Shown piece by piece: positions 17,144 to 18,733 of a DNA stretch of 64,000 nucleotides. Location of the stretch: assembly GCA_003354005.1 (NCBI GenBank), contig PIWD01000002.1, positions 594-64,593 of the forward strand. Direction: 5' to 3'. Numbering within the stretch: position 1 is the stretch's first letter; every line of letters starts with the position of its first letter. Position numbers and translations under genes: made by a program. Under the pieces are notes generated by a model. That model was not told the origin of the DNA, ran no database searches, and worked only from the letters and a program-made list of their open reading frames with translations. This DNA comes from Gammaproteobacteria bacterium (GTDB lineage: Bacteria; Pseudomonadota; Gammaproteobacteria; PIWD01).

Positions 17144-18733
17144 ATGGCCACACAATTTATTCAGAAATTTTATCTTTTTTTAAGCCTGCTAATCGTAGGT
17201 CTCTGCTTGGGTAAAATACCCTATGCCTTAGCCACCGCTCAAGAAAAACCACTGCCAGTACTCCCCCCCTTGTCAGAACGTATTGATAATAAACTGATAG
17301 TTAGTGGCTGGTATACATGGGATCCCTACCAATACGAGTCCTCAAAAAATGAAGATACCCAAAAGACAGTTTTTTTAACAGGATTAGATATTAAATTGAT
17401 GCAGGCAATTCTTGACTATGCAAACTTTCAAATCCATCATTCCTATGTTAACTGGGGTCAACATCAAATGGATTTAAAAGATGGTAAACGTGACTTAGCG
17501 GCTGGTGCATTCTACAGCAATGACCGTGCTCAATACGCCTACTACTCCGAGCCTTACCGTGAGGAAACAAATGTCCTTTACTTAAAAAAAGGACAAGCCA
17601 AAAACTACCCATTCCGTGATACAAAAGGAATGCTAGAGATGTTTAAAGCACGTAAGTTTCGCCTCGGTATCATCGGTAGCTACAAATATGCTGCACCAAT
17701 TATTAACGATTTTATCAATGACCCTGCCAATCAGGATTTATTGGTGAAAGTTAAAACAGAAACAGAAAACTTTGAGCACCTCTTTAAAGATAAAATTGAC
17801 GGCTTTTTAGTTGATCGACTTGTGGGAGCCACATTGATGTGGCGTAATCACTGGCAATCTAAAATAGATATCCACCCCAATTTACTCGTAAGTGATAAAA
17901 TATATGCTATCTTCAGCAAGAAAACCACCACACCCGAAACCGTGCAACAATTTAATCAGGCACTCAAGAAAATCAAGAAAAGTGGACATTATAAACGTAT
18001 CGTGATGGACTACACCTTTCCAATCTTATTGGCGATTACTGTTGAAAAAGTCTGGTTTTTAACTGTCGATTTGATCGGAACCATTGCCTTTGCTATTTCT
18101 GGACTGCTCTTAGCACATCGTGAAAAGTATTCACTCATCGGTGCCTTTGTACTGGCTTCCTTACCCGCTATGGGTGGTGGTGCAATCCGTGACTTAACAC
18201 TTAACCGTCACCCAATCGGTTTGTTGCGTTCTACAACGTATATTCTTGCTGTACTCTGTACCTTATTAGTAGTTTATGCCATTATCCACACTTTTAGACA
18301 TCTCTCAAAATATCTGCCCTGGCTGCAACAACTGGATAAAAGGTGGGATTTTGCCAAATTATCGGGATATGGCGTACATATATTTGATAGCCTAGGCTTA
18401 TCCGCTTTTACAATTATTGGTGTGATCATCACCGTGAATGCAAATATTCACCCTTTAATGCTGTGGGGGCCTATTTTCGCTGTCGCAACCAGTATCGGCG
18501 GAGGGGTTATGCGTGATGTATTGCGTGGTGAGCGCAACATTCCTTTCTTAAAAGGTGAGTTATATGCTGAACTGTCTGCTGTTTGGGGTATTGTCTTCTG
18601 CGCCTTCCTCAATTGGCAAATCGAACACCTTAACCCCAATGCAATCTTTATTGGTGTGATTGTTACCCTGTTGGGCTGCTTTATTAGCCGCTTACTTGTA
18701 ATGTACATTAAAGTTGCTAGTACGACCTTCTAA
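17144..18733 (+). CDS. Fusion protein. It has an N-terminal periplasmic solute-binding domain (family-3 / amino-acid-binding-like) and a C-terminal tandem UPF0126 (YadS / prokaryotic TRIC-like) membrane domain.
   Basis: A signal peptide, then a soluble domain of about 250 aa, then 6-7 TM helices carrying two GGGxxRD motifs (AMGGGAIRDLTL and SIGGGVMRDVLRG). These motifs are diagnostic of UPF0126 repeats. Confidence 0.6.
   Translation: MATQFIQKFYLFLSLLIVGLCLGKIPYALATAQEKPLPVLPPLSERIDNKLIVSGWYTWDPYQYESSKNEDTQKTVFLTGLDIKLMQAILDYANFQIHHSYVNWGQHQMDLKDGKRDLAAGAFYSNDRAQYAYYSEPYREETNVLYLKKGQAKNYPFRDTKGMLEMFKARKFRLGIIGSYKYAAPIINDFINDPANQDLLVKVKTETENFEHLFKDKIDGFLVDRLVGATLMWRNHWQSKIDIHPNLLVSDKIYAIFSKKTTTPETVQQFNQALKKIKKSGHYKRIVMDYTFPILLAITVEKVWFLTVDLIGTIAFAISGLLLAHREKYSLIGAFVLASLPAMGGGAIRDLTLNRHPIGLLRSTTYILAVLCTLLVVYAIIHTFRHLSKYLPWLQQLDKRWDFAKLSGYGVHIFDSLGLSAFTIIGVIITVNANIHPLMLWGPIFAVATSIGGGVMRDVLRGERNIPFLKGELYAELSAVWGIVFCAFLNWQIEHLNPNAIFIGVIVTLLGCFISRLLVMYIKVASTTF

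Follow-up and report, generated by a model that had tools for sequence, protein, structure and literature searches.

Introduction

Prokaryotic TRIC proteins, represented by SaTRIC, CpTRIC (5wuf), SsTRIC (5h35/5wuc), RsTRIC (5h36) and Escherichia coli YadS/EcTRIC, are compact membrane channels of about 200-220 amino acids (aa) without any extramembrane domain. They are built from seven transmembrane (TM) helices in a 3+3+1 arrangement, with a GGGxxRD motif in TM2 and TM5, a pore phenylalanine in TM1 and TM4, D-R-D-Y lock networks and an arginine in TM7. Their N-terminus is periplasmic and their C-terminus cytoplasmic (PMC5143425; YadS-GFP in PMC5477506), and their physiological role and gating stimulus are stated to be unknown (PMC5477506). 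Here, we analyzed a 64,000-nucleotide stretch of DNA from a Gammaproteobacteria bacterium (contig PIWD01000002.1, positions 594 to 64,593; hereafter the window), which carries at positions 17144-18733 of the + strand a single gene that joins a periplasmic solute-binding domain (SBD) of the SBP_bac_3 type to a TRIC domain. All of the TRIC features listed above recur in the encoded protein, and the fusion adds a 240-aa periplasmic domain directly on TM1.

Two labels that conflict with each other are attached to the TRIC family (TCDB 1.A.62): bilayer experiments made it a "K+ channel", and fitness screens a "glycine transporter". The Pfam entry PF03458, formerly UPF0126, is currently named "Gly_transporter" (Glycine transporter). 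In the screens, unfused UPF0126 genes were specifically required for glycine utilization in 5 bacteria (Price et al.), a count given as 11 bacteria for the final paper. The genes concerned (SO1319, Psest_1636, AO353_13110, PGA1_c00920 and Sama_2463) belong to the same Pfam family, with two PF03458 copies each; the description of their products, which are putative transporters, names two UPF0126 domains and no binding domain. Their link to glycine utilization fits the amino-acid type of the SBD attached in the fusion. An amino-acid-type receptor on TM1 provides an experimental handle on what bacterial TRIC pores respond to or carry, and the identity of its ligand, together with an answer to the question of gating versus translocation, would help settle bacterial TRIC function.

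Domain architecture of the fused protein

The gene opens with an ATG and closes with a stop codon at 18731-18733, encoding one 529-aa open reading frame (ORF). Pfam assigned PF00497 (SBP_bac_3) to residues 58-290 (59.8 bits; cut-off 26.4) and PF03458 to two stretches (100.8 bits; cut-off 23.5), the remaining match being one sub-threshold domain of unknown function; the NCBIfam equivalog PRK10578 scored 86.7 bits against a cut-off of 326. In a sequence search of the PDB, residues 303-521 matched the prokaryotic TRIC structures 5h36, 5wuf, 5wuc and 5h35 (E 1e-10 to 1e-12), and residues 49-290 matched polar amino-acid binding proteins and the SBDs of GlnPQ. An initial annotation made from the letters of the DNA had described this ORF as a signal peptide, a binding-protein-like domain and a tandem UPF0126 unit of the family that includes prokaryotic TRIC homologs, and the ORF list, Pfam and the PDB matches agree with that description.

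The AlphaFold2 model, computed with 120 homologues (pLDDT, the predicted local distance difference test, 90.6; pTM, the predicted template-modeling score, 0.83), comprises a two-lobe alpha/beta domain at residues 50-290, a short helix at 292-300 and seven TM helices at 303-326, 331-352, 365-390, 403-432, 438-460, 474-492 and 498-522, for which hydropathy was also examined. The two repeats of three TM helices proposed in the initial annotation are thus present, but it had missed the seventh helix (498-522), which is found in all TRICs. The C-terminal domain accordingly combines two PF03458 repeats, a seven-TM 3+3+1 fold, both kinks, the pore phenylalanines and the D-R-D-Y lock of the TRIC family, and the N-terminal domain combines PF00497, the two-lobe fold and the arginine and aspartate anchors of class F binding proteins. 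Searching the PDB with Foldseek, we found no solved chain that spans both domains.

Residues 1-30 (17144-17233, +) form a predicted export signal, with K8, a hydrophobic core at 9-22 and A-L-A at 28-30; in the model, a helix at 2-21 is followed by a disordered segment at 24-37. A hydrophobic N-terminal stretch occurs in all homologues, with variable sequence. These features point to a signal peptide that is presumably cleaved, and the segment could alternatively serve as an uncleaved anchor. Because the N-terminus of prokaryotic TRICs is periplasmic and the lysine plus arginine count of the predicted topology is 10 in cytoplasmic loops versus 3 in periplasmic loops, an exported binding domain on TM1 appears topologically coherent, and it would be placed above the outward vestibule of its own protomer.

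Conservation and distribution of the fusion

Both PF00497 and PF03458 are carried by all of the 120 best homologues (120/120; 38-51% identity) retrieved from a search of 5.8 billion proteins, and these homologues originate from Binatia, Alpha- and Betaproteobacteria, Myxococcota and Planctomycetes. Scanning all 1.84 billion cluster representatives with HMMER, we recovered 222 clusters (50% identity) at E<=1e-30, nearly all of them full-length at ~500 aa. Among GTDB species genomes, the fused gene is present in about 70 species from many phyla. The carriers include Burkholderiaceae (Zwartia hollandica), Caedibacter, Caedimonas and other Holosporales and a Rickettsiaceae metagenome-assembled genome (MAG); Verrucomicrobia (Chthoniobacter), Xanthobacteraceae, Reyranella, Acidobacteriota, Planctomycetota and Kiritimatiellia; and Thiotrichales, Lysobacterales, Marinomonas and two marine Synechococcus.

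When the TRIC domain alone was used as the query, members of the fused clade scored at least 183 bits, whereas the nearest unfused TRICs reached 94 bits at about 33% identity. The initial annotation had proposed to check orthologs for a split form, and inspection of the short matches in this search revealed no genuine two-gene version. Two short matches considered as split orthologs (P0287 and P0291) were rejected as fragments of broken fused genes. On two metagenomic contigs, L079 (3271-4822) and L080 (3233-4810), the fused gene is distributed over 2-3 ORFs, reflecting either a pseudogene or an assembly error, and gene callers report a ~270-aa "TRIC-only" protein there; the pieces represent one gene with intervening parts missing, not two complete genes.

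The fusion is real and ancient, and its recurrence lies far outside what chance would give. An alternative would be that adjacent binding-protein and TRIC genes were merged in the window by a sequencing or assembly frameshift, an explanation for which no support was found; interrupted ORFs occur only in relatives such as L079 and L080. We regard it as negligible, since hundreds of lineages share the fusion and its junction is conserved: the architecture is continuous throughout the top matches, clusters and species genomes listed above, no part of the family is better conserved than the junction residues, each split case consists of pieces of a single gene, and the nearest unfused TRICs lie far below the clade in score. 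The frameshift that the initial annotation had named as a possible objection can therefore be set aside.

NCBI names for the homologues are generic, either "TRIC cation channel family protein" or "transporter substrate-binding domain-containing protein". The abstract of a published survey of the TRIC family reportedly refers to domains fused at the N- or C-terminus, so that fusions of this kind may have been recorded there earlier. In the literature that we searched, which did not extend to that survey (Silverio & Saier 2011), no paper describing an SBP_bac_3-TRIC fusion was found, in line with the initial view of the arrangement as uncharacterized.

The TRIC core and the clade-specific junction

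The pore and gate elements known from TRIC studies are retained in the fused protein (all features on the + strand). The N-terminal triple-helix bundle, TM1-TM3, spans residues 303-390 (18050-18313; Pfam repeat 1) and contains F316, the kink GGGAIRD at residues 344-350 in TM2 (18173-18193) and the periplasmic lock set D309-R349-D350-Y366, which is conserved and symmetric to the cytoplasmic lock; the roles of the residues in this bundle follow PMC5143425 and PMC5477506. The C-terminal bundle, TM4-TM6, spans residues 403-492 (18350-18619; Pfam repeat 2) and contains D415, F422, the kink GGGVMRD at residues 452-458 in TM5 (18497-18517), a plug loop at 461-473 and Y474, which jointly make up the cytoplasmic lock. 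The hallmark GGGxxRD motif is therefore found in both repeats, as initially proposed. F316 and F422 align with the in-line pore residues F17 and F103 of RsTRIC (5h36). In the cytoplasmic lock, D415, R457 and D458 are 100% conserved in the fused clade and Y474 98%, all four being 100% conserved in unfused TRICs; their counterpart is D99-R139-D140-Y155 of SaTRIC. TM7 (residues 498-522; 18635-18709) carries R516 at its cytoplasmic end, conserved in 98% of the fused clade and 100% of unfused TRICs.

Conservation that is specific to the fused clade is found at the junction. The 12-residue linker TFPILLAITVEK (residues 291-302; 18014-18049) connects the last SBD helix to TM1 and is modeled as a helix at 292-300. 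Within the fused clade, P293 is invariant, L295, L296 and T299 are conserved in at least 95% of members, and W304 and F305 at the periplasmic end of TM1 are present in 100%; none of these six residues is conserved in the unfused TRICs compared. The TM4-TM5 periplasmic loop carries the motif P-L-(W/M)-L-W-G-P (residues 437-443; 18452-18472), in which P437, L438 and W441 are conserved in 100% and W439, G442 and P443 in at least 95% of the fused clade; 84 unfused TRICs lack this motif or vary at it. Two more residues, R355 in the loop between TM2 and TM3 and W491, likewise reach at least 95% conservation in the fused clade only. Taken with a longer TM3-TM4 loop, the ~33% identity and exchanges at four further positions weighed below, these remodeled loops set the fused clade apart from known TRICs, and the junction is the best-conserved part of the fused family.

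We also examined covariation between the two domains, using average-product-corrected (APC) mutual information (MI) over 299 sequences (effective number of sequences, Neff, about 200). Among the top 25 inter-domain pairs, 17 touch the periplasmic face of the TRIC domain, compared with 36% of columns as background, and several pairs link lobe-2 residues (A152, P156, M166, E211 and N235) with the TM6-TM7 loop at 490-502. Overall, the analysis weakly favors contact of the binding domain with this face, chiefly between lobe 2 and the TM6-TM7 loop.

The ligand-binding site

The periplasmic type-II (class F) SBD occupies residues 50-290 (17291-18013, +). Its sequence matches in the PDB include the GlnPQ SBDs, 3hv1 and AncQR, and its modeled fold matches liganded ArtJ, AncQR and GlnH with Foldseek TM-scores of 0.75-0.83 (E about 1e-12), confirming the binding-protein fold that had initially been assigned to this region. 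The ligand-binding domain of AvGluR1 (4io7), an ionotropic glutamate receptor (iGluR), is also among the Foldseek fold matches.

Two residues stand out as the most conserved of the domain among the 120 members, which share about 40% overall identity. R128 (17525-17527, +) is invariant and aligns with the arginine of the "T-D/E-E/D-R" motif of GlnPQ SBD1/2, 3hv1, 4zef and AncQR; D224 (17813-17815, +) is conserved in at least 90% of members and aligns with the aspartate of "IDGLLIDR" in 3hv1 and "VDAVVTDN" in AncQR. We take R128 to occupy the position of HisJ R77, the arginine that clamps the ligand alpha-carboxylate, and D224 that of HisJ D161, the aspartate that binds the ligand alpha-ammonium. 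The sandwich positions are W59 and W104. At the positions that, by alignment, presumably correspond to HisJ S72 and T120, the fused protein has the aromatic residues F123 and F/Y180. The pocket thus appears unusually aromatic, atypical for class F, and possibly small. Its residues are nearly constant across phyla, and this limited variation suggests a ligand common to the whole family.

The aromatic replacement of canonical polar pocket residues (S72 to F123, T120 to F/Y180) also bears on a different explanation, in which the domain no longer binds a small ligand and instead caps the protein structurally, supports its assembly or stability, or docks another periplasmic factor on a constitutively regulated TRIC pore. 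The modeled domain is closed although no ligand was supplied, with TM-scores of 0.75-0.83 to closed forms versus 0.53-0.60 to open forms, which would be compatible with such a role; AlphaFold2 models of binding proteins, however, often adopt closed forms. The retention of R128 and D224 at the frequencies given above, across phyla and at such low overall identity, is hard to explain without ligand binding, and we consider a ligand-less domain improbable.

A sub-group of fused proteins of 690-760 aa (P0122, P0123, P0127, P0137, P0138, P0147, P0196, P0199, P0216, P0217, P0220 and P0224) carries a ~200-aa cytoplasmic C-terminal extension past TM7, which gave no convincing Pfam match and could represent a regulatory module. 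In divergent members of this sub-group, as seen in P0196 and P0220, W59 is replaced by arginine.

Coupling of the binding domain to the pore

To identify possible partners, ORFs were called and clustered by sequence across 78 related loci plus the window. No neighbor cluster recurred beside the fused gene; no ABC, TRAP (tripartite ATP-independent periplasmic) or signaling partner recurred there, and no ABC component was present among the 10 tightly linked neighbors named by Pfam. The absence of a conserved neighbor across the 78 loci indicates a stand-alone system; as neither an ABC or TRAP system nor any other partner accompanies the gene, it must be the TRIC domain that the binding domain serves. 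Because no other partner is found, both the ligand anchors and the pore are intact and the junction is the most clade-specifically conserved part, we consider it likely that ligand occupancy of the periplasmic domain is coupled to the TRIC pore of the same protomer.

Several described systems resemble this arrangement in part. In SBD-fused ABC importers (GlnPQ and OpuA), a receptor is likewise tethered to its own translocator, and the closest sequence relatives of the present binding domain are indeed such transporter-attached SBDs, namely those of GlnPQ, with 6h30, 4kqp and 4zef as the closest sequence matches. The fused protein differs in that its linker is short and invariant, not flexible, and in lacking an ATP-driven release step; neither an ABC permease domain (BPD_transp_1) nor an ATPase was detected in it by Pfam at E<=1. 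Venus-flytrap sensor kinases (BvgS family, 3h7m) share the end-to-end connection of an SBP_bac_3 fold with a TM helix, the last helix running into the membrane, whereas the output here is a seven-TM pore domain, with no kinase and no cytoplasmic domain at all. TRAP transporters and tripartite tricarboxylate transporters (TTT), both secondary transporters, likewise carry out ATP-independent transport that needs an extracytoplasmic binding protein, but their membrane folds and binding-protein families are unrelated, they are coupled to ion gradients, and the binding protein is usually separate.

Import of a small amino acid as a candidate function

We tentatively interpret the fusion as a single-gene uptake device that imports a small amino acid, with glycine as the leading candidate, a reading that we slightly favor over the gated channel considered below. 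The architecture, the topology, the conserved ligand anchors, pore and both locks, the clade-specific junction and the lack of a partner gene are shown by the analysis, whereas the amino-acid nature of the ligand, the coupling of its binding with the pore and permeation by the ligand in place of a cation are inferred. In the proposed mechanism, each protomer of a presumed TRIC trimer would bear its own amino-acid-type binding domain on the pore helix TM1. The lobes would capture a small alpha-amino acid, possibly glycine, through R128 and D224 in the unusually aromatic pocket; lobe closure would then be relayed through a rigid linker (P293 to W304-F305) and the remodeled periplasmic loops (R355 and PLWLWGP at 437-443), unlocking the periplasmic D309-R349-D350-Y366 network of the N-terminal bundle. 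The ligand would be released into the protomer's own pore and move down a gradient that metabolism would maintain, the periplasmic and cytoplasmic locks perhaps opening in turn.

Several observations were counted in favor of import, including the need for unfused UPF0126 genes in glycine utilization, the stand-alone gene, the periplasmic N-terminus of TRICs, the conserved anchors R128 and D224, the low variation of the pocket, the transporter-tethered relatives of the SBD, the conservation of linker and periplasmic loops in the fused clade only, and the pTM of the model (0.83). The open pore of SaTRIC, at a width of about 4 Å, would admit only a very small solute. The aromatic residues F123 and F/Y180, together with W59 and W104, would fit a pocket narrowed to suit a small ligand. 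Silverio & Saier 2011 proposed metabolite efflux for TRIC; the presence of a periplasmic binding domain argues against pure efflux in the fused clade. Cheap uptake encoded by one gene is plausible in streamlined or host-dependent carriers such as Caedibacter, Caedimonas, Holosporales, the Rickettsiaceae MAG, picocyanobacteria and lake Burkholderiaceae. If import is its function, the protein would represent the first channel or uniporter to depend on a binding domain, and ATP-independent uptake from a single gene would be useful to streamlined and intracellular bacteria.

A number of points weigh against import. The four biochemically tested prokaryotic TRICs all conduct K+ and other monovalent cations, and none of them is known to carry glycine. 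The link to glycine comes from fitness data on unfused relatives that are ~33% identical to this TRIC domain. The fused clade also exchanges residues that are near-universal in unfused TRICs, with D330 changed to S, T341 to P and G481 to W, and P465 lost. The covariation signal for an SBD-pore interface is only weakly positive, since the top 100 pairs divide into 64 periplasmic versus 27 cytoplasmic against a background ratio of 1.65. As a passive pore, the TRIC domain would have no obvious energy source for opening a liganded binding domain, and we know of no binding-protein-dependent channel or uniporter.

A ligand-gated cation channel as the competing reading

The same architecture might instead operate as a ligand-gated cation channel, as the initial annotation had proposed by analogy with iGluRs. 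The periplasmic domain would then be a pure sensor whose lobe closure shifts TM1 and the periplasmic loops and opens the protomer's pore for K+ or other monovalent cations, with no transport of the ligand itself. K+ conductance in bilayers or liposomes is on record for SaTRIC, CpTRIC, SsTRIC and RsTRIC, channels that have been tied to K+ uptake, and every pore and gate residue of the TRIC studies is kept in the fused protein (F316, F422, the GGG kinks, D415-R457-D458-Y474 and R516). Sensor proteins are usually built in this way, with an SBP_bac_3 domain joined end to end to a TM helix, and the sensor-kinase domain 3h7m is among the best fold matches (TM-score 0.83); a short invariant linker to TM1 suits mechanical coupling, and a built-in sensor would supply the missing physiological opening stimulus of prokaryotic TRICs.

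Against gating, a K+ leak controlled by an amino acid is hard to rationalize in streamlined endosymbionts and oligotrophs, and the genetics of the family favor amino-acid (glycine) utilization over ion homeostasis. The binding-domain sequence is nearest to SBDs of transporters, and operon-like neighbors, where present, encode metabolic enzymes and not ion-homeostasis or signaling proteins. Moreover, the single covalent connection of the binding domain is to lobe 1, whereas iGluR gating works through linkers from the mobile lobe. On balance, we regard gating as possible, though slightly less likely than import.

The comparison with iGluRs and GluR0 shows where the analogy holds. Both have an SBP_bac_3-type clamshell with the same arginine and aspartate anchors, covalently joined to a membrane domain that is ion-conducting in iGluRs. 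In iGluRs, however, the pore is inserted between the two halves of the SBD and four subunits share one pore, whereas the fused protein has a contiguous SBD (50-290) with the pore following it. TRICs form trimers with one pore per protomer, presumably also in the fusion, in contrast to the iGluR tetramer with its one central pore, and Pfam detected no Lig_chan (PF00060) or P-loop pore domain in the fused protein. The fusion would thus resemble iGluRs in logic only, without being a member of the iGluR/GluR0 group. The initial proposal accordingly keeps its plausibility at the level of logic, but the analogy is loose, and import accounts for the protein equally well or slightly better.

Should the channel reading apply, which we consider possible to the same degree, the protein may represent an independent bacterial ionotropic amino-acid receptor, in which a clamshell gates a non-P-loop TRIC pore and each trimer holds three separately gated pores. 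It would then constitute a second, independent origin of ionotropic amino-acid receptors, the pairing of SBD and channel having arisen at least 2 times on unrelated pore scaffolds, and would reveal, for the first time, what opens a prokaryotic TRIC under physiological conditions.

Genomic context of the fused gene

The fused gene has a GC content of 38-42%, the same as the neighboring DNA, and is preceded by a putative Shine-Dalgarno sequence, AGGGAAAG, whose 3' end lies 8 nt from the ATG. Directly upstream on the + strand, separated by a 59-bp gap, is a beta-carbonic anhydrase gene (16416-17084), itself preceded by nadE (14782-16419, +), which encodes a glutamine-dependent NAD synthetase with CN_hydrolase and NAD_synthase domains. 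The NAD synthetase gene and the start of the carbonic anhydrase gene overlap by 4 bp; nadE, can and the fused gene are therefore probably co-transcribed as one transcription unit. No Rfam element, including a glycine riboswitch, was found anywhere in the window.

In an unrelated MAG from the Xanthobacteraceae (L020, 3509-4141), the fused gene likewise has a beta-carbonic anhydrase gene directly upstream in the same orientation, and the two overlap by 4 bp. This adjacency, observed in 2 of ~70 loci, is above chance expectation, but the cases are too few for interpretation. The tightly linked neighbors as a whole are mixed, comprising GNAT, glyoxalase, LigB, an ACT protein, a PanP-like decarboxylase and, at the two loci just described, beta-carbonic anhydrase. 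Identification of the ACT-protein neighbor as GcvR was ruled out by its score (31 bits versus a cut-off of 267). In Marinomonas sp. (L054, 7478-9031), a PanP-like pyridoxal-dependent aspartate 1-decarboxylase (512 bits; cut-off 606) begins 2 bp past the fused gene, the lone case that ties the fused family to small amino-acid (beta-alanine) metabolism.

Other ORFs around the gene in the window are of a different character. A 449-aa ORF on the - strand (13310-14659) has hydrophobic N-terminal segments and a sub-threshold match to the SidE phosphodiesterase domain (PF12252; 22 bits versus 25), and is Legionella-effector-like. Taken with a GC content of 38-40%, this ORF hints at a host-associated bacterium of Legionellales type as the origin of the window. 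Right downstream of the fused gene, a 506-aa ORF (19013-20533, +) with a Ser/Asn-rich N-terminus and no Pfam match has a GC content of 28-35%, much below its surroundings, and may be a horizontally acquired or effector-like gene. Genes for a YdjC-like deacetylase and a family-2 glycosyltransferase adjoin each other on the opposite strand (20603-22437, -) and are unconnected to the fusion.

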